Source: Chara braunii
Taxonomy: Eukaryota > Plantae > Charophyceae
Assembly: GCA_003427395.1 (NCBI GenBank)
Contig: BFEA01000023.1
Coordinates: 765,618-825,137 of the forward strand
DNA length: 59,520 nucleotides
Reading direction: 5' to 3'
Shown: in pieces, positions 293 through 37,800 of the stretch
Layout: the number at the start of each line of letters is the position of its first letter
How positions within the stretch are numbered: the stretch's first letter is position 1
The notes under the pieces: generated by a model
The model's database searches: none
Seen by the model: only the letters and a program-made list of their open reading frames with translations
Told to the model about the DNA's origin: nothing
Program-made: the position numbers and the translations under genes

Positions 293-297
293 CTGTG

Positions 298-10767: not shown

Positions 10768-10999
10768 TGTCGCACTTTTTCCAGCCGGGCCACTTCGGGC
10801 GACCGGAAAGCCAACACGATTTTGTATGCTGATTGCAATAAATAAAACAAATTAAATAATGCAAGAAGCAAGACCGACTGACTCGAGCAAAGACAAGATC
10901 AAATGAATGAGGGAAGAATGAGAACTCGTAATAATCTCAAAAAGTACACATAAACAAGCATTGTCAACACCTCTTAAGAATCCTCACTCATCCCTCTAG

Positions 11000-11673
11000 T
11001 CAGTCTCTCTCAATCTCTCTTTTTACTGATCTTCTCTGGTGCCGTGACCCACGCCCACGTACAATCTGAGACTGAGGCTTCGCAACAAAATGCCACCTGA
11101 AGCCAACAAGCTCTGAGCATGACCATCCGAGGCACATGACACGGTAGTTAACCGTGGAGCAAAACTCCTCCCACAAAGTAGGCAGTCCATCCACTGAAAA
11201 AACTTCTCGTGTGAGGTTGGGATACTCGGTGGGCTCGGTCAGCGCCTCAACGTCGATCACTGCCAGAGAGATGTGCCTCTTTGCCAAACCAATCACATCC
11301 AGCCAACTCGTGCCATCTGTGAGGAGAGAAGGGACTGGAGGCCTAGGATAGTCAGTATAAAGCATTGACCCAAAACTGCGGATCAACGTAATGTCACTCT
11401 TTTCTAGCTCCCTCTCTCTTTGCTCAAGGTATTCGGTGGCTGAGATCAAGACAGTATCGAAAAGTTCATGAGTCTCCTTGCCCTTCTTCAGGTAAGGCCT
11501 CAGATCATGGATAGTGCCATCAGCAATACTGTCTGGACAACGAAGATTGACCGATCTCCCTGTCTGAAACCAATGACACTAACATACTGATAATGGAATG
11601 CCTCTTTGCATGAAATCCGGTTGAGGCTGGCCAGCACTGACTCACTGACCGGCGTAGGCTGAACTGTGCTCAT
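11000..11673 (-). pseudogene. LTR-borne accessory ORF A4 (family A, unknown function); one frameshift near 11520..11580
   Basis: Joined translation MSTVQP..VLASLNRISCKEAFHYQY..IHDLRPYLKK..PPVPSLLTDGTSWLDVI aligns by eye with leader ORF A1 (VLKELSKF..FPYRY..IYDIRPYVKE..PLVPDSYCDGTNWLPII). Confidence 0.7.
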
Positions 11674-11726
11674 GAGTACTCTTGCTAGTGCGAACCCACC
11701 AGATGGTCATGGAAAACTAGTTACCA

Positions 11727-11885
11727 AACTGATTGCTGAAAACTGATTGCTGAAAACTGATTGTTGATGATTGATTACTGAAAACTGATTGCTGATGATT
11801 GCTACTGAAAACTGATTGCTGATGATTGATTACTGAAAACTGTTTGCTGAAAATTGAATGCTGAAAATTAAATGCTGAAAACTGT
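11727..11885. repeat. Tandem 13-14 bp repeat (aactgattgctgaa) inside the LTR; longer array at 30721..30905
   Basis: Seen directly. Confidence 0.9.
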
Positions 11886-11974
11886 TGTTTTGAAGTCTAG
11901 CCCAGCTCTCTACAGTCTGCCTGCGCCAGACACACACTCATCTCTTTTATACTGAAATAGGTAATTTACTTGTC

Positions 11975-12229
11975 TCACTGAGAATCCCGGACAACCTTTA
12001 TTGCTTCCTCTACAGTGCCCACTGAGGAAATAAGAGCGCACAACTTACCGTTTTTGTCATGTAAATAATAAATATACTCAATTCGGGTGTGGTTCCTTAC
12101 CAGTGTCAAAGCATGCGCCATCATCATGATTGTCTGCTGATTGTATTTTTCCACTGCGCTCTTCCTCCAGTCCTCTGCCACGCCCTGACGCAGTGAACAT
12201 GCCACCCTTATAATGTCACTATCACCCAT
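11975..12229 (-). CDS. LTR-borne accessory ORF B3 (84 aa, family B, unknown function)
   Basis: ATG-started ORF, clearly paralogous to 12585..12836 (RV.C.L.Q...W...IMM..AL..V.N.T.IEY..Y.H...G.L...SSVG.VEEA...V). Confidence 0.7.
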   Translation of the reverse strand: MGDSDIIRVACSLRQGVAEDWRKSAVEKYNQQTIMMMAHALTLVRNHTRIEYIYYLHDKNGKLCALISSVGTVEEAIKVVRDSQ

Positions 12230-12584
12230 TTCTCCCCTGAGTTTTCGCTGTTTGGTTACCAGTTGACTGCTGCTGTTGAGATTGCCGCCCTGAAGTGCTG
12301 TTTCTAACTACTTAACTGGTTGTTGTTTACTGATTGCTGTTGAGAGGGCTGTAGCTGCTAGTTAGAGAGAAGGGATTGATTGCTGATTAGATAACAGACT
12401 GATGACTAAGTAGAAAACAGATCGACTGCTGCTCAAATGCCAATTAGCACAATGGTTGTTCGTGTTCCGTCGATATACTAGGTACTCCGTTGTGATCTGT
12501 TTACAGAAGCCTGCCTGTTCTCTCTAGTCTGAATCTGCCTGAGGTGAATTTGCCTCTCTCGGTGCTGTTGTCTAAACTCTTTTA

Positions 12585-12836
12585 CTAATTTTCAGTAACC
12601 TTTCTCCTCGCCTCTTCAACAGATCCTACCGACGAGAGGGTATTGTGTAATCTCCCGTCTGACCTATGAATGTAGAAGGTATACTCAATAAATGTCTGGT
12701 TCTTCACTCGCTCCAAAGCCTGTTCCATCATGATTCTTTTCTGATAACAAAGGCCATGTATAACTCTTTCCTCCCAACCTTCACTTCTGTCTTGATGCAG
12801 AGTACATGTCACCCTCAATATTCTTTCACCCTCCAT
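12585..12836 (-). CDS. LTR-borne accessory ORF B4 (83 aa from ATG, family B)
   Basis: MEGERILRVTCTLHQ...ALERVKNQTFIEYTFYIH...SSVGSVEEARRKV; intact in both LTRs; paralog of B3. Confidence 0.72.
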   Translation of the reverse strand: MEGERILRVTCTLHQDRSEGWEERVIHGLCYQKRIMMEQALERVKNQTFIEYTFYIHRSDGRLHNTLSSVGSVEEARRKVTEN

Positions 12837-15800
12837 CTCTCTGCAGAACACCTCTCCTTTCACCCCTGTGCATAGAAACCCTGATGTCCGCCAGAAGCTG
12901 TTTGTGAAATCCGGGTAACTAGACACAGATGGGACGGGTAACTGTACGTGCGTTATGTGTTCGTCTTGTAGGGTCTATGCAGAGTCTACAGAGTCCTCAC
13001 TGATTCAGCCGAGTCTGGGCTTATCTGCTGGTTAACGCCTGAGTTCGCCGAATCCATGCATAAATGAGTTGAGTCCGTACCGAGCCCTCTAATTCTGCAT
13101 TGGATTGCCTGGTCTTGCGTAGGATTACCTGAGCTTACGTTGGACGGCTTAAGTCTTTTTTTAGGTTTGCCCAACTCAGGTTTGTGTAGCCTGGATCTGG
13201 TTCGATTTGTTCATGTCTGATTCATGTTGTCAGAGTCCAGTTAAAATCGGGTAAAAATTATCAGAGCCAAATACAAATTGTCTGAGTCGAGTGAAAATTG
13301 TATGGGTCGAACAAAAGTTGTCTGAGTCGAATTAAAAGTTTGTTTAATAGCAGGTTGAACGCTGATCAAAAGTTGATCGCGTGTTGCTTGATCACTCATT
13401 AAATACTGGTTCGAGATTGACTGCATGGTGCCTGCTTACAGTCAATAACAACGAGTCCTTATCCGCTCGCCACCGTGCTGAGTACTGGCTGTGGCCAAAC
13501 TGCACTGAGCACTGCGTACTACTACACATGACCGACACCGTTTACTGTAAACAACGTTATGTGACTAAAGTCGTGGATCGCCTTTTAATTAATTTTTCAA
13601 GCAGAGTTCTCAAGGAGAGGCCTAAACACCTTGAAGCTTTCCTTAGACTCTAACCTGATCCTTTCCCAACAGCCTCATTGTACGAGTAAGTGCTGTGTAG
13701 TTTTCCGTCTGATCCATAGATGTAGAGGGGGTAGCCAATGAATCCCTGACAGGGGTTTTCAATTACCCTCCTCGAGCTCCCAGTAACCGTTTCCAGTTCG
13801 ACTTAGTTAACATCCTTATGAATTACCTGTCGGTTCACTGGATACAGATGGAGGTTCGCAAGAGCTCCATCTACTAACAGCCCCTTTGATTCAGTCCTGC
13901 AGTCCAGGGTTTGAGATCGGCTCAGACGATCCTACGAGGCTACGCCAACTCGCTAGCACCAGGCTTTCCCTCTCTAATGTGCCCTTGAGCAGGCCGTAAC
14001 TAAGGTCACACACCGAATGCTACTAACATGCTTCCTTTCTCCGTCCAAGATTGTTTGCATTATTCGCAGCGGATTCACTGCGGCTGGCCCGTTGGTAACG
14101 TGCCGCCAACGATTTAACATGGACTGTCGAGTTGGAAGAAGTAACATCACACAATTAAACAGAAAGGGGCTCATAAAACTGTTCGCTCCTGAAACAGACT
14201 ACTTCCCCTGCTAGAGTGCTCATCTTCAGATAGTACAGTTCAGGACATTTTTGGCGAGGGCCTGTTCCGTCCCCCACATATGACTGCACATGTAGGCTCC
14301 CTCACTTGGACGATGCACGAGGCAAGTTGACTCACGTTCAACACATGATCCGGTTTTAATTAGTGACAATTCTTGTACGATGGACTCAAACGACGCCATA
14401 CAGGCCATTACGCATAGGGCAAGAATGTAGATGCAATACCAGCGGAAGCCTCTTTCTCGCAAATAATGCAACGATGAATTTCCTTTCAGACCCTACTCAG
14501 CACTTTTGTCATTAATACGAGTGAGACCCAAGTCTGGGTTATCTGTAAACTTTGCCTAATGTCGAGCTAATCACAAGCCCATCCTCAATGACACGCCCAA
14601 AGGCTCCCAACCACAGACCTCGCTCAATTGTCCATTGAGTACCATTGCCCAGGAAAATACGACAATTTACATGGCTACTCGCCAGACTCATACTGCAGCT
14701 GCGAAACCTTCTGCTTTTACTTTTCTCCTAAAAGAAAAAAAGAAACAGCTATGACCCGGTTCTGTCCAATCATCACAACGCATCACAACCATTATGACTT
14801 TGTCCTGTTCATACTTATAATCTGAGGTCTGACCTACAGATGCACTTATGTCTAGGATCATTTATCCATAGTTCATTATGTACTAGAACCAGCCAAATTA
14901 GAGTGCAGACAGCTAATCCCCATCGAACAGGTATTTAGCCAGTAGGTAAGCTATCTTCCTCAATACTAGTTTTCTTTTGTTCATTAATCAGGGCTCAAAA
15001 CTAGGTCATTAGCAAATAAGGAAAAGTAACAGGGATGTCATGAGAAGTAGTTCAGAAGCCCCTTAGGTAGAGTCGAGACAAGGCAAATACCCGAGCCGTG
15101 TGTCTGACCAAGAAGGAAAACATTCTCGCCAAAAGAGAAAATTTGAAAAGATTCAAGATCGAAAATAATAAAAGAAAACCAGTCCCTTGCAAAACAGAAT
15201 TATTTAACTTTTCCAGAGCACTATCCGAAACCCTACTAACATCACTATCAAGATTAAACAGGAGAGCAACAAACCGATGTTTTATTAAGATTCTATCGGT
15301 CTTGGTAGTTAATTAATCATTCCCTTAAGTGGCGTGATCCTTCAACACCCAAGCATACTTAGCTGTCGCTCAGTTTAGTCCCTTTCAATCACATCGTCAT
15401 TACTCCCGTCAAAGGTGACTAACTCTTGCGTGCTAAGTTCAAGCTCGCGTCCTTTTGCCTATCGAAAGTCAAATCTCATCAGGCCAACACCGATCACTGA
15501 GCTCGCTAATCAACCGCCAATACTCATCACTTTTGTCCTTAAAAACAGAACTTAGTAGCCCACGATCCCTCGTAGCACGAACTCGGCTCACCTCCCCACT
15601 CCGCTTTGAAGAGGTAACAAGGGAGGAGACTCGGGTACGCCCCAGCACCCAAAAACATTTGACGTCAACAGGAAGGCTTGAACGACTGTCCGTTTTAAAA
15701 CCCCGACTCAGTCTCCCAGCACTCAGAATGTACCCATATTGGGTGGAGCTCACGAAAACTAGTTGCGTCGCTCACGCTGAATTGAGCCCATCCACACTCA

Positions 15801-16461
15801 CTTCTCTCAAATGCTTACACCGTAGTTGCCTGGCCCGCAAACAAGAAGCGCTTCCGAGACCAATCTTCTCAGGGGGTACGTATGAGATGATACGGGGCAG
15901 ATTATACTGGTAAGTACTCAAGAAGCCACGAAGATCGGTTATTCTGGCGAGTCACAGAAGCTAGCCGCGGCTTATCAATCCGGTAGTGTTTTGAGCAAGA
16001 GCTGACGTACGCAGTCCGAGCACCTCCCGCGCATTCATGCGCATCATTCGTCACGGTCACCTCTTCAACTCATCACTCGCAGCAATCCAATTGACATCAC
16101 CACCTCCCACCAGCTCACTCGTTCTGCTCTCTCCTCTTCTCCCTCCTTCTATGTTAATTGCCTTAGTACGCGTTAGCCTTCTGCTTCATGCCTAGCAGCT
16201 TCCATCCCAGAACGACCCTCGTTTGCAGAGTCTCTCAAGAAAACGATGCCTCTCACGATAACTAGACGAGTCACAGTGGCGCGATGGCGCTTGACGTCAA
16301 CAACATACTCTTAGGCTCGCGCATCCTTCCCTGCGTCTCACCAGCACACGTTGACCGCTCCCTCTCACAAGACACGACACCTGTCGAGCGTGAGCTCCTG
16401 CCACTCTCACTACTTGTCTCTCAGAATAGCACGTGTTGACCCTTTCCTGACGCTGCTCTCC

Positions 16462-16980
16462 TTACACGCGTCCTCTCCCCCTGTTTTTCTTCTCACCTGT
16501 CCCGCGGCCCCTCGGTGTCAGTTGTCGTGAGCTGGCCTCGGGTCCCTTTTCCACCGGCTTCGCGGCTCGGTGGTGCCTCTGGATCTCCCCTGGCCTGATC
16601 CAGGACCTGAGGTCCGTCTCCCGGTCTGCCTCACTCATTTCGCTTTCCCCACCCGAGTCTCTCTCGTTGTGCTGTTCCTCCCTTGTTTCGGTCCCAGTTG
16701 ATGACTCGGTCTCGTGATAGATGATCGACACCCTCAAGCCCACGGTCACCCCGTCTCGCCTGCACCTCCGCTCCGCCCTGTCACCAACTTCGGAAATGGC
16801 AGCCTGCAGCCTCTGGTCACCTCGCATCTCCTCTCTCCCCCCTTCTATGCAGATCTTTAGTCGGACTACCTCTCCCCCGTCATAATTCAGGACCGTAGTG
16901 ATCTGAGGACCTTCATCTGACATTGGAACCCAGCGCACAGTTTGCCGCCAACAGTCAGGCCTATATCCGTGTAGTGCCAT
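16462..16980 (-). CDS. LTR-borne ORF C (~172 aa, unknown function; acidic then basic C-terminus)
   Basis: Longest ORF in the LTR, first long ORF downstream of the putative TATA at 17163..17170. Its counterpart at 35512..~36032 is frameshifted. Confidence 0.45.
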   Translation of the reverse strand: MALHGYRPDCWRQTVRWVPMSDEGPQITTVLNYDGGEVVRLKICIEGGREEMRGDQRLQAAISEVGDRAERRCRRDGVTVGLRVSIIYHETESSTGTETREEQHNERDSGGESEMSEADRETDLRSWIRPGEIQRHHRAAKPVEKGPEASSRQLTPRGRGTGEKKNRGRGRV

Positions 16981-17162
16981 AGCCACTCTTTCTCAATGGT
17001 CAGCGCCAATGCTCAGTCCGCACTATCCCTGCTCGCAGCACCTAGCCAGGCTGAGTCCCGGGAGCCAGGAGTCAAGACTTCAGCGCGATGCCATTACTCA
17101 CACTCGAGGAGTGATAACGCTCCCCTCATGCACTTTTTGCTTCAAGACCCAGAGGCAACCTG

Positions 17163-17170
17163 TTTTATAG
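17163..17170 (-). promoter_or_regulatory. Putative LTR TATA box (CTATAAAA); counterpart ~36216..36223
   Basis: Motif conserved in both LTRs, ~1.2 kb from the start of the 3' LTR and upstream of ORF C. Confidence 0.45.
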
Positions 17171-17733
17171 AGCTCCGGGTGAGAGCGACCCCGGTGTACT
17201 AAAAGAGGGCTTTTCTGATAATGACTCGAATTTTAGGATTTAATAAAGTAACACAAAATTTAAATAAATCTTGAATAAGACCGGCGGGAAACTTCAACCG
17301 CCCGTGCACAGTCAAGGCACTCGAACCCCCGTCGTGCCGGTCCCTAGACTGTGCAACATGACCGAGGTCCGAAGAAAAGGAGGAAAAAAAAATAGAGATC
17401 CCATAATGGGATACCAACGACCGCAGTTTCCCTTTCAAAACTGACCTCCGGCCTGCCCCTATCGGGTGCCCGTATCCGATGGTAAGGAGTGGGCTTATGA
17501 CCCCATTCAGGGGTGATAAGCTTCCTACCAATGCGGCTGCGGGTCGCCCTCCACTTTTGAGGTTCTGCTGCACGGCGCTCTGTCGAGTGTGACAGCCGCG
17601 GAATAGTAGTGAAAAGTCGGCCCACCTAGACCACTAACTTAAACGGGTTCGAATTCGAACCGTTGGTGGGTCCTTCCCGCAACGCGACTAAGGCTCTACC
17701 ACGCTTAAGCAGACGGCAGAATAAAATTATGTA

Positions 17734-17782
<49 letters not shown>

Positions 17783-18354
17783 GTAATACATCAATCTGAA
17801 ACGACGCGATATAGTGATTGGGACCGACAAATTATTCCCTACTAAAGTACGTCAACCCAACTGCGGGCCAGACCTCTAGTCCCTTTTTCTTTTTACTTTC
17901 CTTTATTTTTCCTTTCTTCCCCCTTTCTGTTTTCTCTGCATAATCTTCTCACTCCCGACAACGACTGAATGTACCTGACCCATAACCTGTACAGGGGCAC
18001 TTGGCGCGCAGTTGAAAAGACTGAGTCAGTCTTCTCCTCCGTGTCCCAGGGCAGACCCGGCGACTACCACGGTTACCGGCCGGTTGTGCCCTGCTGTACA
18101 GTAGGGCGCCGAGCCTGCATGGACCAATGGAAGGTCCTGCTGGAAGGTCCCAGGGCAGACCCGGCGACCACCACGGTTCCCCCTTTTTGTCAAAGGCAAC
18201 GTCACAGGGACTGGTCCGCGCCGAGGCACAACCAGGATACCAGGAACAGCATGAGGTCCAGGACACGTCTATAGGCCGGAGCATCGGAGCGAGGACTGGT
18301 ACCAAGCAGGGACTTGGTACACAGAGGAGGGTCGGGATACCGCGCCATCCGACA

Positions 18355-18389
18355 TAATACCAAACCCCCACCCAGCGTCCCCGCTGGGT
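18355..18389 (-). other. Atypical polypurine-tract region with an adjacent 8 bp hairpin
   Basis: Minus strand reads GGGTGGGGGTTTGGTATTA just before the 3' LTR. Perfect stem acccagcg-tccc-cgctgggt at 18370..18389. Confidence 0.45.
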
Positions 18390-18410
18390 CAAAACGCACC
18401 GCACTTCTAG

Positions 18411-18417
18411 TATAAAA
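18411..18417 (+). promoter_or_regulatory. Putative TATA box for antisense transcription into the 3' internal region
   Basis: TATAAAA followed by a ~400 nt pyrimidine-rich leader and the ATG at 18822. Confidence 0.4.
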
Positions 18418-18821: not shown

Positions 18822-19292
18822 ATGCCTGAGGCGCGTCGTGGACAGGGTAGAGGAAGGGGAGGAAGAGGAGGGAAGGCTAAAGAGGAGTCGTCGGCCAGGG
18901 CACGACGAGATTATAGTTCAGAGGAGGAGGAAGAGGAGGAACCGCGAGGCTATGGCCGTTTAAGGTCACACCGTCGTTACCCGTTAGGAGGGTGGTATGA
19001 GAGAACTCCATCTCCTTACAGGATGAAGTTCCTTCGCAAGAAATTCGACGCGCGCTATGGTACACCCAACACCTCTTCGCCTCCTTATATCCCCAGAGCT
19101 CCTTCCACCCCTGCCGTAAGCAAGGCTATAGTGCCCGCTCAGCCTCCCTCTGTTCCATGTACTGTCTCATCTCCTCATCACCCCAGTCACTGTGTTCTCT
19201 TCAACATTTTCTTCCTTCTCTTCCTTTTCCAGCTTGAACTCATGACTGTCTTTTATGTCCTATATAAACGCGACTTATTCTTAGCCTTTTAA
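18822..19292 (+). CDS. Antisense accessory ORF in the retrotransposon 3' region (156 aa; RGG-rich/acidic N-terminus, Pro/Ser-rich middle)
   Basis: MPEARRGQGRGRGGRGG...SSEEEEEEE...; its position and orientation match the antisense ORFs known from Tat/Retand/Grande gypsy elements. Confidence 0.5.
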   Translation: MPEARRGQGRGRGGRGGKAKEESSARARRDYSSEEEEEEEPRGYGRLRSHRRYPLGGWYERTPSPYRMKFLRKKFDARYGTPNTSSPPYIPRAPSTPAVSKAIVPAQPPSVPCTVSSPHHPSHCVLFNIFFLLFLFQLELMTVFYVLYKRDLFLAF

Positions 19293-21333: not shown

Positions 21334-22725
21334 TTACTTAGGTGGTAGATTTCTCTTCCCTCTCTTTGGAGTCACTGTAGGGATCAAGTCAGGGTCTCTA
21401 AAGATGAACTTACAAAGTTTTGACCCTGATACCATGTCATGAACCCTGAATCCATCCATATCTGAAATCTCATAAACTTTGCCCTCTGCTTCCCCAGTGA
21501 TTCTATAGGGACCAAGCCATCTGGGCTCCAACCTCTTAGTCCATTGCGTCTCAAGGGAACTGTCAAACAAAAGGACAACATCTCCAATCTTCAATTTCTC
21601 TTTTCTTATATATCTTGTCTTGTTCCATCTTTCTTGATCCGATAGTCTGCTGGATGTCATTCTCTCTGTTGCATCCATCACTGTCTGATCTACTTCAGAT
21701 ATTTGCCTCATTCTGATCTGAAGGAGTTCTGAAATAGAATAATTTCTGTCTCTTTCTTGACTTGACCATGTCTTGACAATACTCTCAATAGGCAATGTAG
21801 CATATCGGTCGTACCACAGAGTAAAAGGTCCATAGCCAGTAGTCCTCTTGACTGTGATATTATCAACATATACAACAACTCTTAACACCTTTCGTCAGTT
21901 GCTGAGATTCCCTTCACACCACTTGGCGAATGAATCTTTCAGAGTTTTGTGACCTCTTTCAACAGGTGCATTCGCTTGAGGATGGTAAGTAGTCACATAC
22001 CGAATTCTGACACCTAATCTGAGTGTAGTTCTTCTGACAATTTCATTTCTGAACTCTGATCCTCTATCTGAGACAAATTCTCTGATAAAAGGATACCTGA
22101 GGTAGACTTCCTCTATCCAATCAGCCACTTGTTCGACTGTCTTTCTTTTCAAAGTTTTTGCCTCAACATATCCAGATAAATTATCTCTCATGTTTAATAT
22201 GTATCTCATCCCACCCTTGCCTGGAGGCATGGTGATGAGATCCAGATGAACTCTGCTACCTGACTCTACCAGGATTTTAGGGAATAGGGGTTCAATCATC
22301 CTTGTGGTAGACCTCTTTTGACATAAGACACATGATTTACAGTATTTAAAAATCATGTCTCTCATGCCAGGCCAAAAGTAGAGTTTGACAGTCTTGGAGT
22401 AGGTAGCCTCAGCAGCCCTGTGGCCACCGGCAACCCCCTCATGTAGAGCAGCGATAATCTCTAACTGCCACTCTTTACCACAAACCGCTCTTAGCGGAGG
22501 TAAACCTCCCTTACCATCCACAAAGAGATGTCCTCTCTTCAATCTGAATTTCTTCCTTGAATCCTTACAGTAATATTCTTTTAGCTGCTCCTTTTTCATC
22601 TTTCTGCCAATCTCTTGATAATTTTCATCATATTCTTTAAAGAAGAAAAATATATATTCTTCCTTCTTTTCACTTTCTTCTTGTTCCTTTGAACCTGAAC
22701 TTTCTCCAATCTCATGAGCAGCCAC
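21334..22725 (-). pseudogene. pol: Integrase domain of pol (HHCC zinc finger, DDE core, GPY/F motif); in-frame stop at 21895
   Basis: LHEGVAGGH...CKSCVLC; HLDL, VSDRGSEF, YHPQANAPVERGH; RWLGPYRI. No chromodomain follows. Confidence 0.92.
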
Positions 22726-22974
22726 TGCTGCAGCATTGAATTTAGCATACCAATCATTTGGTTCATCTTCCTCTTCTTTCCCAAGAACCGATTCGTAAAT
22801 GTACGCACTAGGGATCTATCCCCAGCTGTCCCTTTCTTCTGACCATGGATTTCACTTGTAGGAGCATGACACTTCATAGTCCTCATCATCTTTCTCATTA
22901 AGAAAATTATCAACATAGGAAGATTCTTCAATTGTCTCATTCACATCTTCTTCTTCTTCTTCTCGCCACTCAAT

Positions 22975-23400
22975 CCGGCTTAAGCCATCCGCCCTGTTCT
23001 TCTTAGTGGATATTTTTTCCAGCATAAAATCATATGTTCAGATGAAGACGATTCATCTGCTGACTGCTGGATCTAACTGCTGATGCTTTTTAATTGCACC
23101 AATCACAACAGATGCATCAGTCCTCATGATGAATCTCCTTCCTAAAACGTAGTGCCTGAAGCACCTGAGGCTATAGATGATTGACAGTAGTTTTTTCCTG
23201 AATTGGGTGTAGCTTCTTTCAGTAGAATTGAGGGTTCTGCTCTCAAATCTCAGAAGTCTTTCTCTCCCATTTTCATCTTTCTGAATAAGCACTCCACCGA
23301 GAGCAACTGGTCCTTCATCCGCCTCAATGATGAAAGGTCTTGTCTCCTAGTCATCATAATATGGTACTCCCGGCACTACACCACCATCTCTTAGTTTTTC
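22975..23400 (-). pseudogene. pol: RNase H domain of pol
   Basis: FIIEAD.GPVALGGVLIQ...FESRTLNSTERSY...FRHYVLGRRFIMRTD...NRADGLSR; contains stops. Confidence 0.9.
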
Positions 23401-24500: not shown

Positions 24501-24614
24501 CTCTTATAATTTTCCTCTCTTTTTCCAAGGCTTCATCATAATCTTTTTCTATTAGGACTGCCACTGGGTTTTTCTTCACCTCCTTGGGCTTATATTTTCT
24601 TTTTGACCCAGTGA

Positions 24615-25376: not shown

Positions 25377-25533
25377 CTCCTCTCAGTTTGGGCGCTAACG
25401 TCATTGCTTCCTTGAAAGACAGTGTCACTTCCGTTTCTTCCAGCATTTCAGCAATTACATCCGAAATCACAGTCTCGTCATCCTAATCACTCTTGAGAAT
25501 AAATTTTCTCTTTCTCCCCTGTTTATTCTTTTT

Positions 25534-27803: not shown

Positions 27804-28298
27804 CTACTGAGAGCATTCTTCTTGGACTCTCTTCACTTTCCATGCAAACTTTATCATGGCATACCAATTGTATCTTGGGAATGTGAGTCCCTCAACAAGT
27901 GGAGATGGTATCCCAACAAAAAGTCTGACATAGGTACTAAGGGAGAAATTTCTTCCCTCGCGCTTTAATCTTATCTTCTCATCATGCACTAGATTCGACG
28001 CTCGTTGCCAACACGCACCTTTTTGGTTTTCATCAAATCTCTGCTTTGGCACATAAATTCCAATATCATATTCATGAAGATCAATAAAATAGCATGTAAG
28101 AACATACGGACTGTCCTGTTCTTGTCCTGATCTCTTTATGGCTTCATACCTCACGATTTCATAAGGAATTACAACCCTACCCGCTATAGAATTAAGAGAA
28201 TTCAACAACTTGTCTGATTCAGCCTTACTCAGCCCTTCATGGTCTCTTATCAGTTTAAGCTTAGATTTCTCTCTCAAGGGTATATAGCGTCGACTCAT
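27804..28298 (-). CDS. Leader accessory ORF A3 (164 aa, family A; frame stays open past the TAG to 27708)
   Basis: LLNSLN...YEIVRYE...SGQEQ..YVLT.YF..L..YD..IYVPK.R...CW; paralog of A2. Its ATG overlaps the A2 stop (ATGA). Confidence 0.75.
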   Translation of the reverse strand: MSRRYIPLREKSKLKLIRDHEGLSKAESDKLLNSLNSIAGRVVIPYEIVRYEAIKRSGQEQDSPYVLTCYFIDLHEYDIGIYVPKQRFDENQKGACWQRASNLVHDEKIRLKREGRNFSLSTYVRLFVGIPSPLVEGLTFPRYNWYAMIKFAWKVKRVQEECSQ

Positions 28299-28789
28299 CT
28301 GACTCTTTGGCCTCTCCTCACTTTCTGGGCAAACTCAATCACCGCAAACCAATCATCTTTTGATAAATTTAAATTAGGCAAGGGAGGGGCTGAAAATCCC
28401 TCAAAGATAGTAAATCGAGTTGATCCAATGAAGTTCTTATTTTCCCTCTCAAATTTATCTTTCTATTTCAGTACCACTTCCTCATCAAATCTCCAGCATC
28501 TCTCATATACTGCATCAGCACTTCTTTCTTTTGGGACATAAATTCTTACGTCGTACACATCCAGGTATGTGAAATAGAATGTCAGTACATATAATCGTTC
28601 CTGCTCCCATCCGCTCTCGACCATCTCATACCTGACAACTTCATATGAAAATGTCTCTCTCTTGCTTAGAGTATTCAACGACCTTAGGAGACATTCAACC
28701 TTCTCTTGACGTGGACCTGAACCTCTGCTAAAATTCGACCTTCTTTGTCTAATTACTTCTGCTGAAATCTCTTCAGCTCTCATGACCAT
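28295..28789 (-). pseudogene. Leader accessory ORF A2 (~164 codons, family A) with an internal TAG at 28463
   Basis: Reading through the TAG gives ..KDKFERENKNFIGSTRFTIFEGFSAPPLPNLNLSKDDWFAVIEFAQKVRR, colinear with the A3 C-terminus. Confidence 0.75.
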
Positions 28790-29252
28790 CGTTCCTTTTC
28801 TCCCTTGTCAATACCATGTTGATTATTGGCAGCCAGTTAGTCCCATCACAATAGCTGTCAGGTACAAGAGGAATTAGAAGAGTCTTGTAAGTTACTGGCA
28901 TTATACCCCATTCCACTTTCCTCTTTTGCTTGATCAGATCTGTCTTTTCATCATAAATAAACTGGATCACGATCTCCCATAACCTGTTAAAATTCTCACC
29001 ATCATTGCTGCCTCCTTCCTTGACATATGGGCGGATATCATAGATATCTCACTCAAAGAAGTGAGTCATCACTACACAGATGGTTGAGCCACGAGAGTGA
29101 TAGCCCCAACAAGCCTCATATCTGTAAGGAAATATTCCTCTTGTAGTAAATTTAGACAATTCTTTCAGAACACCGTCGACCAGCATTTGTCTCGATCCGT
29201 CTCACCCTCTTCCTTTCAATTCCTTTCAGCGTGTTGGGCGATAATTGGGCAT
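28773..29252 (-). pseudogene. Leader accessory ORF A1 (160 codons, family A) with three in-frame TGA
   Basis: MPNYRPTR*KELKGRG*DGSRQMLVDGVLKELSKFTTRGIFPYRYE...FFE*DIYDIRPYVKE...DGTNWLPII; same length and motifs as A2/A3. Confidence 0.65.
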
Positions 29253-29501: not shown

Positions 29502-29519
29502 TCCCCGACAACGGCGCCA
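29502..29519 (-). promoter_or_regulatory. Primer-binding site complementary to the 3' end of tRNA-Asp
   Basis: Minus strand TGGCGCCGTTGTCGGGGA, 4 nt downstream of the LTR end; 17/18 match to the plant tRNA-Asp(GTC) PBS TGGCGCCGTTGCCGGGGA used by Athila elements. Confidence 0.9.
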
Positions 29520-29993
29520 TTTTTGTCGGACTTTTTCCAACTAGGCTACTTCGGGCGACCGAAAAGCCAACAGGCTTTCACGCAGGATTTTCTATGCTGA
29601 TTGCAATAAATAAAACAAATTAAATAATGCAAATCCCTTCCTGTTGTGTGCGTCCGACTTCGAGCGAGACCCTTCAATTGTAGTCTTCGCCGGTCCCCGG
29701 TCTTAGGAATCTTTTATTTTGATTCGGAACAACTAGAATTATGCAAATAATAACCATAAAATTATGGGGTGCTATGCATGCATCAATTATGTCAATTTGA
29801 TTTTGAGAACTGTGACAGAATCATCCACGATAGCAATCATCAGACAAGAACAATGCAAGAAGCAAGACCTACTGACTCGAGCAAAGGCAAGATCAAATGA
29901 ATGAGGGAAGAATGAGAACTCATAATAATCTCAAAAAGTACACATAAACAAGCATGGTCAACACCTCTCAAGAGTCCTCACTCATCCCTCTAG

Positions 29994-30667
29994 TCAGTCC
30001 CTCTCAATCTCTCTTTTCACTGATCTTCTCTGGTGCCGTGACCCACGCCCACGTACAATCTGAGACTGACGCTTCGCAACAAAATGCAACCAGAAGCCAG
30101 CAAACTCTGAGCATGACCATCCGAGGCACATGACACGGTAGTTAACCATGGAGCAAAACTCCTCCCACAAAGTAGGCAGTCCATCCACTGAAAAGACTCC
30201 TCGTCAGAGGTAGGGATACTCGGTGGGCTCGGTCAGCGCCTCAACGTCGATCACTGCCAGAGAGATGTACCTCTTTGCCAAACCAATCACATCCAGCCAA
30301 CTCGTGCCATCTGTGAGGAGAGAAGGGACTGCAGGCCTAGGATAGTCAGTATAAAACATCGGCCAAAAACTGCGGATCAACGTAATGCCACTCTTTTCTA
30401 GCTCCCTCTCTCTCTGCTCAAGGTATTCGGTGGCTGAGATCCAGACAGGATCGAAAAGCTCATGAGCCTCCTTGCCCTTCTTCAGGTAAGGCCTCAGATC
30501 GTGGATAGTGCCATCAACAAAACTGACTGGACAACGAAGATTGACCGATCTCCCTGTCTGAAACCAATGACACTAACATACTGATAATGGAATGCCGCTT
30601 TGCATGAAATCCGGTTGAGGCTGGCCAGCACTGACTCACTGACCGGCGTAGGCTGAACTGTGCTCAT
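29994..30667 (-). pseudogene. ORF A4 copy in the 5' LTR (same frameshift as the 3' LTR copy)
   Basis: Colinear with 11000..11673. Confidence 0.65.
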
Positions 30668-30995
30668 GAGTACTCTTGCTAGTGCGAACCCACCAGATGG
30701 TCATGAAAAACTAGTTACCAAACTGATTGCTGAAAACTGATTGCTGAAAACTGATTGCTGAAAACTGATTGTTGATGATTGATTACTGAAAACTGATTGC
30801 TAATGATTGCTACTGAAAACTGATTGCTGATGATTGCTACTGAAAACTGATTGCTGATGATTGATTACTGAAAACTGTTTGCTGAAAATTGAATGCTGAA
30901 AACTGTTGTTTTGAAGTCTAGCCCAGCTCTCTACAGTCTGCCTGCGCCAGACGCACACTCATCTTTTTTATCCTGAAGTAGGTAATTAACTTGTC

Positions 30996-31250
30996 TCACT
31001 GAGAATCCCGGACAACCTTTCTTGCTTCCTCTACAGTGCCCACTGAGAAAATAGTAGCGCACAACTTACCGTTTTTGTCATATAAATAATAAATATACTC
31101 AATCTGGGTGTGGTCCCTTACCAGCGTCAAAGCATGCTCGATCATCATGATTGTCTGCTAATTGTATTCTTTTACTGCGCTCTCCCTCCAGTCCTTTGCC
31201 ACGCCCTGACGCAGTGAACATGCCACCCTTATAATGTCACTATCACTCAT
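30996..31250 (-). pseudogene. ORF B3 copy in the 5' LTR with a premature TAG
   Basis: Colinear with 11975..12229; CAG>TAG after ...KEYN. Confidence 0.65.
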
Positions 31251-31605
31251 TTATCCCCTGAGTTTTCGCTGTTTGGTTACCAGTTGACTGCTGCTGCTGA
31301 GATTGCCGCCCTGAAGTGCTGTTTCTAACTACTTAACTGGTTGTTGTTTACTGATTGCTGTTGAGAGGGCTGTAGCTGCTAGTTAGAGAGAAGGGATTGA
31401 TTGCTGATTAGATAACTGACTGATGACTAAGTAGAAAACAGATCGACTGCTGCTCAAATGCCAATTAGCACAATGGTTGTTCATGTTCCGTCAATATACT
31501 AGGTACTCCGTTGTGATCTGTTTACAGAAGTCTGCCTGTTCTCTCTAGTCTGAATCTGCCTGAGGTGAATTTGCCTCTCTCGGTGCTGATGTCTAAGCTC
31601 TCTTA

Positions 31606-31857
31606 CTAGTTTTCAGTAACCTTTCTCCTCGCCTCCTCAACAGATCCTACCGACGAGAGGGTACTGTGTAATCTCCCGTCTGACCTATGAATGTAGAAGG
31701 TATACTCAATAAATGTCTGGTTCTTCACTCGCTCCAAAGCCTGTTCCATCATGATTCTTTTCTGATAACAAAGGCCATGTATAACTCTTTCCTCCCAACC
31801 TTCACTTCTGTCTTGATGCAGAGTACATGTCACCCTCAATATTCTTTCACCCTCCAT
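31606..31857 (-). CDS. ORF B4 copy in the 5' LTR
   Basis: One amino acid different from 12585..12836. Confidence 0.7.
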   Translation of the reverse strand: MEGERILRVTCTLHQDRSEGWEERVIHGLCYQKRIMMEQALERVKNQTFIEYTFYIHRSDGRLHSTLSSVGSVEEARRKVTEN

Positions 31858-34800
31858 CTCTCTGCAGAACACCTCTCCTTTCACCCCTGTGCATAGAAAC
31901 CCTGATGTCCGCCAGAAGCTGTTTGTGAAATCCGGGTAACTAGACACAGATGGGACGGGTAACTGTACGTGCGTTATGTGTTCGTCTTGTAGGGTCTATG
32001 CAGAGTCTACAGAGTCCTCACTGATTCAGCCGAGTCTGGGCTTATCTGCTGGTTAACGCCTGAGTTCGCCGAATCCATGCATAAATGAGTTGAGTCCGTA
32101 CCGAGCCCTCTAATTCTGCATTGGATTGCCTGGTCTTGCGTAGGATTACCTGAGCTTACGTTGGACGGCTTAAGTCTTTTTTTAGGTTTGCCCAACTCAG
32201 GTTTGTGTAGCCTGGATCTGGTTCGATTTGTTCATGTCTGATTCATGTTGTCAGAGTCCAGTTAAAATCGGGTAAAAATTATCAGAGCCAAATACAAATT
32301 GTCTGAGTCGAGTGAAAATTGTATGGGTCGAACAAAAGTTGTCTGAGTCGAATTAAAAGTTTGTTTAATAGCAGGTTGAACGCTGATCAAAAGTTGATCG
32401 CGTGTTGCTTGATCACTCATTAAATACTGGTTCGAGATTGACTGCATGGTGCCTGCTTACAGTCAATAACAACGAGTCCTTATCCGCTCGCCACCGTGCT
32501 GAGTACTGGCTGTGGCCAAACTGCACTGAGCACTGCGTACTACTACACATGACCGACACCGTTTACTGTAAACAACGTTATGTGACTAAAGTCGTGGATC
32601 GCCTTTTAATTAATTTTTCAAGCAGAGTTCTCAAGGAGAGGCCTAAACACCTTGAAGCTTTCCTTAGACTCTAACCTGATCCTTTCCCAACAGCCTCATT
32701 GTACGAGTAAGTGCTGTGTAGTTTTCCGTCTGATCCATAGATGTAGAGGGGGTAGCCAATGAATCCCTGACAGGGGTTTTCAATTACCCTCCTCGAGCTC
32801 CCAGTAACCGTTTCCAGTTCGACTTAGTTAACATCCTTATGAATTACCTGTCGGTTCACTGGATACAGATGGAGGTTCGCAAGAGCTCCATCTACTAACA
32901 GCCCCTTTGATTCAGTCCTGCAGTCCAGGGTTTGAGATCGGCTCAGACGATCCTACGAGGCTACGCCAACTCGCTAGCACCAGGCTTTCCCTCTCTGATG
33001 TGCCCTTGAGCAGGCCGTAACTCAGGTCACACACCGAATGCTACAAACATGCTTCCTTTCTCCGTCCAAGATTGTTTGCATTATTCGCAGCGGATTCACT
33101 GCAGCTGGCCCGTTGGTAACGTGCCGCCAACGATTTAACATGGACTGTCGAGTTGGAAGAAGTAACATCACACAATTAAACAGAAAGGGGCTCATAAAAC
33201 TGTTCGCTCCTGAAACAGACTACTTCCCCTGTTAGAGGGCTCATCTTCAGATAGTACAGTTTGAGACATTGTTGGTAAGGGCCTGTTCCGTCCCCCACAT
33301 ATGACTGCACAGGTAGGCTTCCTCACTTGGACGATGCACGGGGCCAGTTGACTCATGTTCAACACATGATCCGGTTTTAATTAGTGATAACTCTTGTACG
33401 ATAAACTCAAACGACGCCATACAACCCATTACGCATAGGGGAAGAATGTAGATGCAATACCAGTGGAAGCCTCTTTCTCACAAATAATGCAACGATGAAT
33501 TTCGTTTCAGACCCTACTCAACACTTTTGTCATTAATACGAGTGAGACCCAAGTCTGAGTTATCTGTAAACTTTGCCTAATGTCGAGCTAATCACAAGCC
33601 CATCCTCAATGACACGCCCCAAGGCCGCCAACCACAGACCTCGCTCAATTGTCCATTGAGTACCATTGCCCAGGAAAATACGACAATTTACATGGCTACT
33701 CGCCAGACTCATACTGCAGATGCGAAACCTTCTGCTTTTACTTTTTTCCTAAAAGAAAGAAAGAAACAACTATGGCCCGGTTCTGTCCAATCATCACAAC
33801 GCATCACAGCCATTACGACTTTGTCCTGTTCATACTTACAATCTGAGGTCTGACCTACAGATGCACTTATGTCTGGGATCATTTATCCATAGTTCATTAT
33901 GTACTCGAACCAGCCAAATTAGAGTGCAGACAGCTAATCCCCGTCGAACAGGTATTTAGCCAGTAGGTAAGCTATCTTCCTCAATACTAGTTTTCTTTTG
34001 TTCATTAATCAGGGCTCAAAACTAGGTCATCAACAAATAAGGAAAAGTAACAGGGATGTCATGATACACGCCCACCCGAGTCCGAGTGGCTATGAGAAGT
34101 AGTTCAGAAGCCCCTCATGTAGAGCCCAGACAAGGCAAATACCCGAGCCGTGTGTCTGACCAAGAAGGAAAACATTCTTGCCTCAAAAAAAAAATTGGAA
34201 AGATTCAAGATCGAAAATAATAAAAGAAAACCAGTCCCTTGCAACACAGAATTATTTAACTTTTCCAGAGCACTATCCCCTTACCCTACTAACAACACTA
34301 TCACAATTAAACAGGAGAGCAACAAACCGATGTTTTATTAAGATTCTATCGGTCGTGGTAGTTAATTCACCATTCTCTTAAGCGGCGTGATCCTTCAACA
34401 CCCAAGCATACTTAGTTGTCGCTCAGTTCAGTCCCTTTCAATCACATCGTCATTACTCCCGTCAAAGGTGACTAACTCTTGCGTGCTAAGTTCAAGCTCG
34501 CGTCCTTTTGCCTATCGAAAGTCAAATCTCATCAGGCCAACACCGATCANTGAGCTCGCTAATCAACNNCCAATNCTCATCACTTTTGTCCTTAAAAACA
34601 GAACTTAGTAGCCCACGATCCCTCGTAGCACGAACTCGGCTCACCTCCCCACTCCGCTTTGAAGAGGTAACAAGGGAGGAGACTCGGGTACACCCCAGCA
34701 CCCAAAAACATTTGACGTCTACAGGAAGGCTTGAACGACTGCCCCGTTTAAAACCCTGACTCAGTCTCCCAGCACTCAGAATGTACCCATATTGGGTGGA

Positions 34801-37800
34801 GCTCACGAAAACTAGTTGCGTCGCTCACGCTGAACTGAGCCCATCCACACTCACTTCTCTCGTATGCTTGCACCGTAGTTGCCTGGCGCTCGAACAAGAA
34901 GCGCTTCGGAGACCAATCTTCTCAGGGGGTACGTATGAGATGATACGGGGCAGATTATACTGGTAAGTACTCAAGAAGCCACGGAGACCGGTTATTCTGG
35001 CGAGTCACAGAAGCTAGCCGCGGCTTATCAATCCGGTAGTGTTTTGAGCAAGAGCCGACGTACGCAGTCCGAGCACCTCCCATGCATTCATGCGCATCAT
35101 TCGTCACGGTCACCTCTCCAACTCATCACTCGCAGCAATCCAGTTGACATCACCACCTCCCACCAGCTCACTCATTCTGCTCTCTCCTCTTCTCCCTCCT
35201 TCTATGTTAATTGCCTTAGTACGCGTTAGCCTTCTGCTTCATGCCTAGCAGCTTCCATCCCAGAACCACCCTCGCCAACAGAGTCTCTCAGGAAAACGAT
35301 GCCTCGCACGATGACCGGACGAGTCACAGCGCGATGGCGCTTGACGTCAACAGCATACTCTCAGGCTCGCGCATCCTTCCCTGCGTCTCACTAGCACACG
35401 TTGACCGCTCCCTCTCACAGGACACGCCACCTGTCGCGCGTGAGCTCCTGCCACTCTCTCTACTTGTCTCTCAGAATAGCACGTGTTGACCCTCTCCGGA
35501 CGCTGCTCTCCTTACACGCGTCCTCTCCCCCTGTTTTTCTTCTCACCTGTCCCGTGGCCCCTCGGTGTGAGTTGTCGTGAGCTGGCCTCGGGTCCCTTTT
35601 CCACCGGCTCCGCGGCTCGGTGGTACCTCTGGATCTCGCCTGGCCTGATCCAGGACCTGAGGTCCGTCTCCCGGTCTGCCTCACTCATTTCACTTTCCGC
35701 ACATGAGTCTCTCTCGTTGTTCTGTTCCTCCCTTGTTTCGGTCCCAGTTGATGACTCGGTCTCGTGATAGATAACTGACACCCTCAAGCCCACGGTCACT
35801 CCGTCTCGCCTGCACGTTCGCTCCGCCCTGTCACGAGCTTCGGAAATGGCAGCCTGCAACCTCTGGTCACCTCGCATCTCCTCCTCTCCCCCCCCTTCTA
35901 TGCAGATCTTTAGTCAGACTACTTCTCCCCCGTCATAATTCAGGACCGTAGTGATCTGAGGGCCTTCATCCGATATTGGAACCCAGCGCACAGTGTGCCG
36001 CCAACAGTCAGGCCTATATCCTTGTAGCGCCATAGCCACTCTTTCTCAATGGTCAGCGCCAATGCTCAGTCCGCACTATCCCTGCTTGCAGCACCTAGCC
36101 AGGCTGAGTCCCGTGTGCCAGGAATTAAGACTTCAGCGCAATGCCATTACTCACACTCGAGGAGTGATAACGCTCCCCTCACGCACTTTTTGCTTCAGGA
36201 CCCAGAGGCAACCTGTTTTATAGAGCTCGGGGTGAGAGCGACCCCAGTGTACTAAAAGAGGGTTTTTCTGATAATGACTCAAATTTTATGAGTTAATAAA
36301 GTAACACAAAATTTAAATAAATCTTGAATAAGACCGACGGGAAACTTCAACCGCCCGTGCACAGTCAGGGCACTCGAACCCCTGTCGCGCCGGTCCCTAG
36401 ACTGTGCAACATGATCGAGGTCCGAATAAAAGGAGGAAAAAAAAATAGAGATCCCATAATGGGATACCAACGACCGTATTTTCCTATTGAAAACAGACCT
36501 CCGACCTACCCCTATCGGGTGCCCGTATCCGATGGCAAGGAGGGGGCTTATGACCCCATTCAGGTGTGATAAGCTTCCTACCAATGCGGCCGCGGGTCCC
36601 CCTCCACTTTTGAGGTTCTGCTGCACAGCGCTCTGTCGAGTGTGACAGCCGAAGAATAGTAGTGAAAAGTCGGCCCACCTAGACCACTAACTTAAACGGG
36701 CTCGATAATTTCTGCAACAAATCCCCTCATAGTTGGGAATCCTGTAAACTTAGAAAACATTTATTTATTTTTTTTTTTTTTTTATGCAACACCACCCATT
36801 TCACTTAAATGAACTGTTTGAACACGATCATAAGTAGTACCTACTAAAAAAATAAGCTAGCACCACTTCATCTTACACAAGTATCATCTCATACAAGTGC
36901 CTCAATCCCATTTCTGTACAAAAATAATGAACATAACAATTAGATATATCCAAGGCTATATGCTTAAAAAATATATATATTTTTTTAATTTGGTAAAGAA
37001 TTATGGTCATGTTTCGACTAATTTAATGGGGTTGATTATGACCACCATTTAGAAGACTCTTTCACCTTACACATGTATCATCTCATACAAGTGCCTCGTT
37101 CCCATTCTGTACAATAATAATGAACATAACAATTAGATGCATACAACCACACTTAAGCAGACGGCAAAATAAAATTTTGTCATTAATAATAATACTAATT
37201 ATAACAGTAATACATCAATCTGAAACGACGCGATATAGTGATTGGGACCGACAAATTATTCCCTGCTAAAGTACGTCGACCCAACTGCGGGTCAGGCCTC
37301 TAGTCCCTTTTTCTTTTTACTTTCCTTTATTTTTCTTTTCTTACCCCTTTTTGTTTTCTCTGCATAGTCTTCTCACTCCCGACAACGACTGAATGTACCT
37401 GACCCATAACCTGTACAGGGGCGCTTGGCGCGCAGTTGAAAAGACTGAGTCAGTCTTTTCACCTCCGCGTCCCAGGGCAGACCCAGCGGCTACCACGGTT
37501 ACTGGCCGGTTGTGCCCTGCTGTACAGCAGAGCGCCGAGCCTGCGTGGACCAATGGAAGGTCATGTGGCGCACCTTTTTGTCAAAGGCAACGTCACAGGA
37601 ACTGGTCCGCACCGAGGCACAACCAGGATACCAGGAACAACATGAGGTCCAGGACACGTCTATAGGCCGGAGCATCGGAGCGAGGACAGGTACCAAGCAG
37701 GGACTTGGTACACAGAGGAGGGCCGGGATACCGCGCCCTCCGACACCGCCCGTGCAAGGACCAAGAAAGGTCCGAGGGGAAAAAAAAAAAAAAAAAAAAA

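Follow-up and report, generated by a model that had tools for sequence, protein, structure and literature searches.

A 27-kb Ty3/gypsy retrotransposon of Chara braunii with small open reading frames in its LTRs and leader

The element, its borders and its decay

The window analysed here, a stretch of 59,520 nucleotides from Chara braunii, contains a Ty3/gypsy element on the minus strand that totals 26,978 bp, of which LTRs of 7,587 and 8,222 bp make up 58.6% (Table 1). Because the element lies on the minus strand, the repeat at 29524-37745 is the 5′ LTR. Both LTRs read TGTCG...CGACA, all four TG..CA ends are exact and, with an interior of 11.2 kb, the bulk of the element is LTR. The primer-binding site (PBS) sits 4 nt inside the 5′ LTR and agrees at 17 of 18 bases with the tRNA-Asp PBS published for FIDEL. 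The target duplication of 4 bp (CCGG/CCGC) has one mismatch and fits NCGN, a preference judged from one insertion only, and at a distance of 130 bp an unoccupied paralogous site (10591-10635) has the same junction without the element. A first-pass annotation had proposed an LTR-PBS-leader-gag-pol-LTR layout of 26,978 bp, about 59% of it LTR; its coordinates and sizes are exact, and both a PBS and a target duplication were found. A tRNA gene search found none, and an Rfam search gave no match.

Table 1. Features of the element and its target site (window coordinates).
Feature	Position	Strand	Remarks
Target-site duplication, left	10764..10767		CCGG, NCGN type
3′ LTR	10768..18354	-	7,587 bp, TG..CA
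ORF A1, family A	11000..11673	-	in LTR; 5′ LTR copy 29994-30667
14/28-bp tandem array	11726..11884		5′ LTR copy 30720-30905; edge of deeply covered LTR end
TATAAA, candidate promoter 2	11946..11951	-	5′ LTR copy 30972; putative
ORF B2	11975..12229	-	84 aa; 5′ LTR copy 30996-31250 has one stop
ORF B1	12585..12836	-	83 aa, intact; 5′ LTR copy 31606-31857 also intact
LTR-to-LTR identical tract	12644..13975		1.33 kb; 5′ LTR copy 31665-32996
B3, remnant of third family-B gene	13656..13787	-	in LTR
ORF U	16462..16980	-	172 aa; 5′ LTR copy 35512-36033 broken
TATAAA, candidate promoter 1	17164..17169	-	190 bp before ORF U; putative
G-rich tract, weak PPT candidate	18365..18373	-	short, 10 nt before 3′ LTR
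Antisense ORF	18822..19292	+	156 aa, low complexity, hydrophobic C-terminus; candidate only
RT-RNase H-integrase frame	21334..24669	-	1,111 codons, 10 internal stops, no chromodomain
Aspartic protease frame	24615..25382	-	domain search
gag	25385..27084	-	Retrotrans_gag, CCHC knuckle, two internal stops
ORF C2	27145..27411	-	88 aa, in frame with gag
ORF C1	27415..27705	-	96 aa; shares the frame of C2 and gag
ORF A4	27804..28298	-	164 aa, intact
ORF A3	28295..28789	-	one internal stop; start just inside end of A2
ORF A2	28773..29186	-	one internal stop
Primer-binding site	29502..29519	-	tRNA-Asp type
5′ LTR	29524..37745	-	8,222 bp, TG..CA
AT-rich block with poly(T) run	36706..37143		5′ LTR only
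Target-site duplication, right	37746..37749		CCGC

The domains follow the gypsy order of gag, protease, RT, RNase H and integrase, and pol terminates soon after the integrase C-terminal domain, with no Pfam match beyond. As the first-pass annotation had stated, there was no match to a chromodomain, to an additional RNase H or to any env family, either in 18 pol, linker and 3′ pieces scanned separately and the LTR and host ORFs or in eight accessory ORFs. A hydrophobic stretch occurs in one ORF only, the antisense ORF between pol and the 3′ LTR. A PDB sequence search with the RT piece gave no match, all 10 of 10 matches in an RT search were from Chara braunii, and scans of metagenome and viral contigs found no relatives. 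Ten stops in pol and two frame breaks mark the element as decayed. It is a genuinely transposed Ty3/gypsy retrotransposon that is now dead.

A global alignment of the two LTRs is identical in 7,196 of 7,497 columns (96.0%), with 17 indels and a K2P distance of 0.041. At a rate borrowed from Arabidopsis, this copy would have inserted about 3-3.6 million years ago and decayed since. A segment of 226 bp near the 3′ end of the 5′ LTR is absent from the 3′ LTR. The AT-rich block is likely a later insertion, and the 5′ LTR would measure about 7.8 kb without it.

Could misassembly or segmental duplication, and not a pair of LTRs, account for part of the long repeats? Three observations point that way: a run of 1,332 bp between the LTRs is free of mismatches where 4.9% is expected (P about 1e-29), a second duplication of 7 kb at 94.6% identity flanks the element on both sides, and no contig spans the element. 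We nevertheless consider this highly unlikely, since exact TG..CA ends, the PBS and the target duplication stand at the repeat borders, the other 6.2 kb of the LTRs carries 4-5% divergence plus indels, no repeat junction has an N gap, and gene conversion accounts equally well for the identical tract. At position 32449, the letter of the window is found on about 15 of 26 depth units in X1, roughly two copies' worth, and on none in X4.

Small ORFs of the LTRs and leader

The most unusual feature of the element is the small-gene content of its LTRs and leader. About ten small ORFs, all sense to gag and grouped in four families (A, B, C and U) that match no described family, are distributed over the LTRs and the 2.4-kb leader. 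Five of them (A2, A3, A4, C1 and C2) stand head to tail ahead of gag; the A4 ATG overlaps the A3 stop codon (ATGA), and C1 and C2 are separated by a 3-nt gap. In A1, a frame break near 11530 is common to both LTRs. The first-pass annotation, from which both the ORF arrays and the pol decay are absent, treated the leader as a plain leader, when in fact it and both LTRs carry such arrays.

Comparisons of paralogs without gaps revealed a codon-position bias. At codon positions 1-3, B1 and B2 share 55, 50 and 30 matches out of 84 (p 1e-4; dN 0.53, dS 2.27), A3 and A4 share 54, 64 and 34 out of 98 (p 6e-5), and A3 and A1 share 37, 38 and 22 out of 79 (p 0.006). Families A and B are shown to have been under codon-level purifying selection. 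For C1/C2, the bias was not significant (p 0.23). An alternative for this family is that C1 and C2 are not separate genes and instead represent a duplicated N-terminal Gag extension cut by decay stops, as their common frame with gag in a copy rich in such stops would allow. This seems doubtful, given that C1 and C2 each have an ATG directly after the previous stop and that the sister-family gene models P0004 and P0005 begin gag at the homologous Met.

Three further gene models of Chara contain homologs of U, with identities of 67, 52 and 39%. At a different locus, P0278, a U homolog (67%) precedes an A1 homolog (86-90% alike), as it does in the element, and the U homologs in P0061 and P0046 lead into the gag of sister families. 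Family B had no homolog among the 277 proteins compared, and a family A search gave one match among 7,996 scored, long proteins only. Between families, B1 shows a weak similarity to leader ORF C2 (score 49, against 43 for the best shuffle), and the scores for U/B1, U/C1, U/C2, B1/C1 and B2/C2 all fall within the shuffled range.

Searches of Pfam, the ESM Atlas and fold libraries assigned no function or fold family to any of the small proteins. Pfam gave nothing above cut-off for eight accessory ORFs, and the ESM Atlas returned no usable match for A4 and only sub-0.9 leads for B1. A structure model of B1 (pLDDT 81) predicts a strand-helix-strand-strand-helix fold, for which the best fold-search match was part of Rai1 (Z 7.0, rmsd 3.0, 68 aligned), with other PD-(D/E)XK-like folds scoring below it. 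We rejected a Rai1/PD-(D/E)XK-like assignment, as Z 7.0 is within the range of common arrangements. No match with E under 0.001 was obtained for B1 in a viral structure library or for the A4 model (pLDDT 60) in viral and PDB structure libraries. From predicted secondary structure one might suppose a single fold for U, B, C and A, a notion that we set aside; the five pairwise scores named above lie within the shuffled range.

Possible origins of the long LTRs

Recognised ORFs occupy only 24% of the LTR; genes alone therefore do not account for its length. Summed read-contig depth in X1, which is not equal to copy number and was surveyed outside 34541-37223, is 14,900-21,400 at the LTR 3′ end, 6,700 at the first 550 bp, 1,900-17,200 in the interior and 50-170 across 31216-34540, and X4 is alike. 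The LTR middle is about 100-fold shallower than the LTR ends and interior, the change being abrupt at the 14-bp array, and the long LTR is therefore a rare or fast-diverging variant.

In the reading that we favour, with a probability of roughly 0.6 for the whole, the element is a dead transposed gypsy near fungal non-chromoviruses whose LTRs were lengthened by an accessory-gene cassette. A fast-changing cassette of small accessory genes would have joined the LTR, and reverse transcription would have copied it to both ends; the LTRs are likely so long because this cassette became part of them. Transcription of the genomic RNA would begin close to TATA box 2, which lies about 1.2 kb from the LTR 3′ end. 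The conserved LTR end with A1 would then represent R-U5, and the 6.4 kb upstream a variable U3 that carries U, B3, B1 and B2 and has its own promoter. A2-A3-A4-C1-C2-gag may lie on one polycistronic RNA translated by stop-start reinitiation. By analogy with the accessory genes of complex retroelements, our guess is that the small proteins serve the element, most likely by acting on its RNA or by countering host silencing.

The depth profile also fits a different history, in which LTRs of the family are short, with conserved ends of about 2 kb. The middle 4-5 kb would be low-copy foreign sequence, from another element or host DNA, that entered a single ancestral LTR and was then carried to both ends within a small subfamily. 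The 100-fold lower depth, its sharp edge and the lack of family B homologs among the proteins compared speak for such an insertion. We consider it unlikely, as U homologs lead into gag in P0061 and P0046 and into A1 in P0278, and their 39-67% identity fits divergence, not absence. The LTR middle moreover has no RT or other TE protein match, and B1 has its weak resemblance to C2.

A further alternative moves the transcription start to a point behind TATA box 1, at 1.2 kb within the LTR, which would leave a short U3 and an R-U5 of about 6.4 kb. The U, B and A genes would then all serve as upstream ORFs or, with alternative splicing, as exons of the genomic RNA, and reverse transcription would begin with a strong-stop DNA of more than 6 kb. 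This layout draws on the TATAAA at 17169 with its downstream GC-rich ORF of 172 codons, on the sense orientation of every accessory ORF and on gene models at other loci that splice U to downstream parts. The gene models that supply this splicing are ab initio, however, and the variable part of the LTR would be R-U5, whereas in established LTR biology it is U3. We thus give this layout a minor share of the probability. Neither a transcript start, a poly(A) site nor a spliced read was seen in X5 (29 reads) or X6 (2,197 reads), and X6 reads fall on both strands, mostly 90-95% alike. Reverse transcription of this element would involve a strong-stop product of 6-8 kb.

Lineage and comparison with known elements

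The RT-RH tree, whose rows include no Ylt1, Tca3, Phygy or Selgy sequences, places the element in a Chara clade of 7 rows (support 98/91) inside a 31-row clade (100/100) that includes Penicillium, Tilletia, Trametes, Rhodofomes and Phenoliferia elements. The AU test rejects a union with three Malus rows (p-AU 7e-7), which we take to be Athila-type from an RT motif. The element thus belongs to a Chara radiation, which clusters with non-chromoviral gypsies of fungi and not with flowering-plant elements. The first-pass annotation had described the PBS as Athila-like; its tRNA-Asp type stands, but as a sign of Athila kinship it is misleading. The absence of a chromodomain after integrase and the separate tree position argue against a chromovirus, and pol pieces and linkers contain no additional RNase H (aRH) that would indicate Ogre/Tat.

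Fungal non-chromoviral gypsies have been placed in Ylt1-like and SN_1006 lineages by two sources (PMC2864245, PMC3248453), the first of which supplies the Ylt1-like label used here. We infer that the lineage is the known Ylt1-like one, possibly including Phygy and Selgy. Of the earlier suggestion of an undescribed early-branching non-chromovirus, the non-chromovirus part is retained, and a position in the clade with fungal elements is preferred to a wholly undescribed branch. The RT phylogeny recommended with it was run as this RT-RH tree, among whose rows REXdb/GyDB references do not feature. A literature search found no placement of Phygy relative to Ylt1 and no description of this element family or of LTR-less gypsies.

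The Chara genome report is said to describe LTR-less gypsy elements. We tentatively suggest that the abundant Chara gypsy radiation may be a fungal-type lineage with record-length LTRs that serve as virus-like accessory-gene cassettes, swappable U3 modules and a reinitiation-coupled polycistron ahead of gag, which has been missed by 6-kb caps and may correspond to those LTR-less elements. Construction of REXdb capped LTRs at 6,000 bp and distance at 20,000 bp (PMC6317226). LTRs of 7.6 and 8.2 kb would thus escape standard searches capped at 6-kb repeats, in line with the earlier expectation about default LTR finders, and elements of this kind stay hidden under the caps with which the plant reference set was built (6 kb for LTRs, 20 kb for distance). 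In our placement, a large share of the gypsy load in Chara lies close to elements of fungi, which bears on the entry of non-chromoviruses into streptophytes and on the origin of Phygy and Selgy. The element also provides a plant-lineage retrotransposon in which the presence of virus-like accessory genes, some in the LTR and some tightly coupled ahead of gag, could be put to the test.

With the Ylt1-like/SN_1006 elements, the Chara element shares its RT-RH grouping with asco- and basidiomycete non-chromoviral elements and the lack of a chromodomain. It differs in its host, a streptophyte alga, in its gene-bearing LTRs of 7.6-8.2 kb and in the absence of a DUF4100 match in gag, a domain that several members of the tree clade carry. 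Phygy (Physcomitrium) and Selgy (Selaginella), compared by description only, are likewise non-chromoviruses without aRH that have a 4-bp duplication, with an NCGN preference in Phygy. However, Phygy measures 7.7-10.0 kb with a tRNA-Trp PBS (81%), Selgy measures 4.4-6.7 kb with a tRNA-Ala PBS, and neither is described with extra ORFs (PMC6317226).

Athila resembles the element in its tRNA-Asp PBS, its lack of aRH and chromodomain and an antisense ORF between pol and the 3′ LTR (PMC6317226, PMC2844528), but has a 5-bp duplication and LTRs of 1-2 kb by default (PMC6317226, PMC2844528, ATHILAfinder preprint). Ogre shares giant size through long LTRs and extra ORFs ahead of gag, but has LTRs of 1.9-6.5 kb, a tRNA-Arg PBS, a 5-bp duplication and aRH in 98% (PMC6431247, PMC6317226). 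With the last three features all absent here, the earlier view that this is not an Ogre is borne out. The LTRs of 7,587 and 8,222 bp exceed the Ogre range and extend the size range of LTRs past the Ogre maximum of 6.5 kb. Burro/GYPSM1 of planarians is likewise a giant gypsy with accessory ORFs, but owes its length of more than 30 kb to an interior of 25 kb and a polyprotein of 4,900 aa (PMC6431247), compared with an 11.2-kb interior here. The Chara element is thus not the longest LTR element overall.

Element structure, borders and surroundings

The window contains a real, decayed, long-LTR Ty3/gypsy element with arrays of small, probable genes in its LTRs and leader. Self-BLAST and global alignment delimit two direct repeats, both beginning with TGTCG and ending with CGACA, that make up 58.6% of the element. 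All element genes lie on the minus strand, so the right-hand repeat is the 5′ LTR. An 18-base PBS, 4 bases inside the 5′ LTR, agrees at 17 of its 18 positions with the tRNA-Asp PBS given for FIDEL (PMC2844528). The flanks carry a 4-bp target duplication (CCGG/CCGC), an empty insertion junction is present in a local paralog 130 bp away, and the PPT is weak. These features bear out the first-pass annotation of a giant 27-kb gypsy element with 7.6- and 8.2-kb LTRs (~59% of its length) and a tRNA-Asp PBS.

Coordinates of features in the window
Feature	Position	Strand	Description
Element	10768-37745	-	26,978 bp
5′ LTR	29524-37745	-	8,222 bp
3′ LTR	10768-18354	-	7,587 bp
LTR middle	31216-34540
Identical LTR tract	12644-13975; 31665-32996		1,332 bp
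14-bp tandem units, LTR	11726-11884; 30720-30905		ahead of A1
Similar 14-bp tandem units	21164-21222		directly past pol stop
Pol-3′ LTR spacer	19936-20900		degenerate repeats
Deep bin in spacer	20036-20594		one bin of unusually deep contig coverage
Bracketing duplication	1-10484; 38906-46134		7 kb, direct
Additional blocks, left copy	298-3172; 7997-8533		first is GAT-rich
Degenerate tandem array	47497-48243		22-bp and 10-bp units, just downstream of WD40 frame
WD40 frame	48716-53089	-	intronless, 1,457 codons

The two LTRs are identical at 7,196 of 7,497 aligned columns (96.0%) with 17 indels, and an AT-rich block found only in the 5′ LTR accounts for ~400 bp of its surplus length. K2P divergence is 0.041, or 0.050 once the identical tract is excluded. 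This tract, which spans the 5′ part of the small ORF B1 and the remnant B3, compares with a usual 4.9% mismatch and may stem from gene conversion or local collapse. A second direct duplication brackets the element (94.6% identity over 6,620 columns). It lacks LTR hallmarks at the one end inspected and looks like a tandem segmental duplication rather than an LTR pair. The termini, PBS and target duplication at the LTR borders stand despite both features.

Pfam matches to Retrotrans_gag, aspartic protease, RT, RNase H and integrase occur in gypsy order. In the pol, linker, 3′ and LTR pieces scanned, Pfam gave no hit to a chromodomain, to an env family or to an additional RNase H, as the first reading had it. 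Ten internal stops interrupt the 1,111 codons of the RT-RH-INT frame, and gag, protease and RT occupy three different frames. Gag continues into protease in a single frame in sister gene models, so at least the gag/protease break reflects decay. The proposed complete LTR-PBS-leader-gag-pol-LTR structure holds in that all parts are present, although the core is decayed and the leader is an ORF array. LTR transitions are most frequent at CG (0.094 per site; CHG 0.061, CHH 0.038). Insertion is dated to about 3–3.6 million years ago on the Arabidopsis rate quoted in a Penium preprint, a rate that may differ in the host.

Outside the element, the WD40 frame combines WD40 repeats with a long coiled coil and is presumably a flagellar CFAP57/WDR65-type host gene; an intronless gene of this length is perhaps notable for Chara.

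Small ORFs and the long LTR

The 2.4-kb stretch from the PBS to gag is a head-to-tail array of small ORFs from families A and C (A2, A3, A4, C1, C2). A3 begins just before A2 ends, the start codon of A4 shares bases with the A3 stop (ATGA), and 3 nt separate the C1 stop from the C2 start. A fourth family A gene, A1, lies in the final kilobase of the LTR, with a frame break that is common to both LTRs and falls at an indel site of other family copies. Deeper in the LTR are B2 (84 aa), B1 (83 aa), the remnant B3 and U (172 aa), the last preceded by a TATA box. Together, recognised ORFs take up just 24% of the LTR's length.

These ORFs are likely real genes because matches between paralogs are biased by codon position (positions 1, 2 and 3): 55, 50 and 30 of 84 for B1/B2 (ungapped, p 1e-4), 54, 64 and 34 of 98 for A3/A4 (p 6e-5), and 37, 38 and 22 of 79 for A3/A1 (p 0.006). 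The bias is not significant for C1/C2 (p 0.23), whose protein score is above 300 of 300 shuffles. The predicted fold of B1 reaches pLDDT 81 with three input sequences, and that of A4 is weaker (pLDDT 60). Protein-family, Atlas and fold searches gave no family, cluster or fold match. Three other Chara gene models contain U homologs (67, 52 and 39%); one of these models runs on into an A1 homolog and another into a sister-family gag. P0002 and P0061, proteins of a sister family with 71% RT-RH identity, begin with an ORF piece before gag that has no match in the window, so the accessory ORFs vary among families.

Contigs of two DNA runs, X1 and X4, from one study that is perhaps the assembly's source, were aligned to 17800-34540 at 88% likeness. 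Summed X1 depth was 6,700 over the first 550 bp of the LTR, 1,900–17,200 over the element interior, 14,900–21,400 over the last 1.1 kb of the LTR, 764 over the 14-bp array and 50–170 over the LTR middle; individual contigs listed have depths of 6–16, and the X4 profile has the same shape. By summed depth, which is not copy number, the family is abundant, whereas the middle of this element's LTR is rare at the 88% level. Such rarity either marks a small subfamily or reflects a fast-diverging segment. We favor fast divergence: at one other locus U is 67% alike, versus 86–90% for A1. Reads from two RNA runs (29 and 2,197), found on both strands and mostly 90–95% alike, gave no useful transcript start, end or splice signal.

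Placement in the RT-RH tree

The RT piece has 10 matches, all of them gene models of Chara braunii and at most 75% identical, which makes Chara the most likely host. Of 278 sequences, 277 of them fetched and one from the window, 183 spanned at least 75% of the RT-RH profile, and thinning reduced these to 124; 47 rows chosen by hand, with no Ylt1, Phygy or Selgy sequence among them, entered an IQ-TREE analysis (LG+G4). The element pairs with the related protein P0001 (100/100) in a seven-row clade (98/91); its six remaining members are all Chara braunii, and its sisters are two metagenomic proteins (100/99). The enclosing 31-row clade (100/100) includes elements of Penicillium, Tilletia, Trametes, Rhodofomes and Phenoliferia. 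Outside it fall the chromoviruses, the animal gypsies and three rows from Malus, which we take to be Athila from an RT motif. Grouping Chara with these Malus rows was rejected (p-AU 7e-7), which argues against the Athila affinity that the PBS might suggest. Of the proposed early-branching, possibly undescribed non-chromovirus lineage, the separation from chromoviruses is borne out, but the position points to a known lineage rather than an entirely new branch: the element belongs to a clade of fungal type with a Chara radiation. Fungal non-chromoviral gypsies fall into the Ylt1-like and SN_1006 lineages of Novikova et al. (PMC2864245; PMC3248453), by which the element would be Ylt1-like. P0172, a protein of the same clade, has a precomputed PHD-finger match (PF00628).

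Comparison with giant and related elements

The 2018 Chara genome paper reportedly describes gypsy elements without LTRs, which we treat as a lead only. Compared by description only, the Physcomitrium and Selaginella lineages Phygy and Selgy share a 4-bp target duplication with our element (NCGN in Phygy; REXdb supplement table, PMC6317226), whereas their PBS, size and absence of extra ORFs are unlike it. The longest REXdb elements measure 24.1 kb, and mining was limited to LTRs of 6,000 bp and distances of 20,000 bp (PMC6317226), so that reference set could not include this element, as expected where LTR finders stop short of 7.6–8.2 kb. Among the lengths compared from Ogre, Burro and REXdb sources, Burro elements are larger overall (>30 kb; PMC6431247), whereas Ogre LTRs span 1.9–6.5 kb (PMC6431247) and the LTRs described here exceed every LTR length given.
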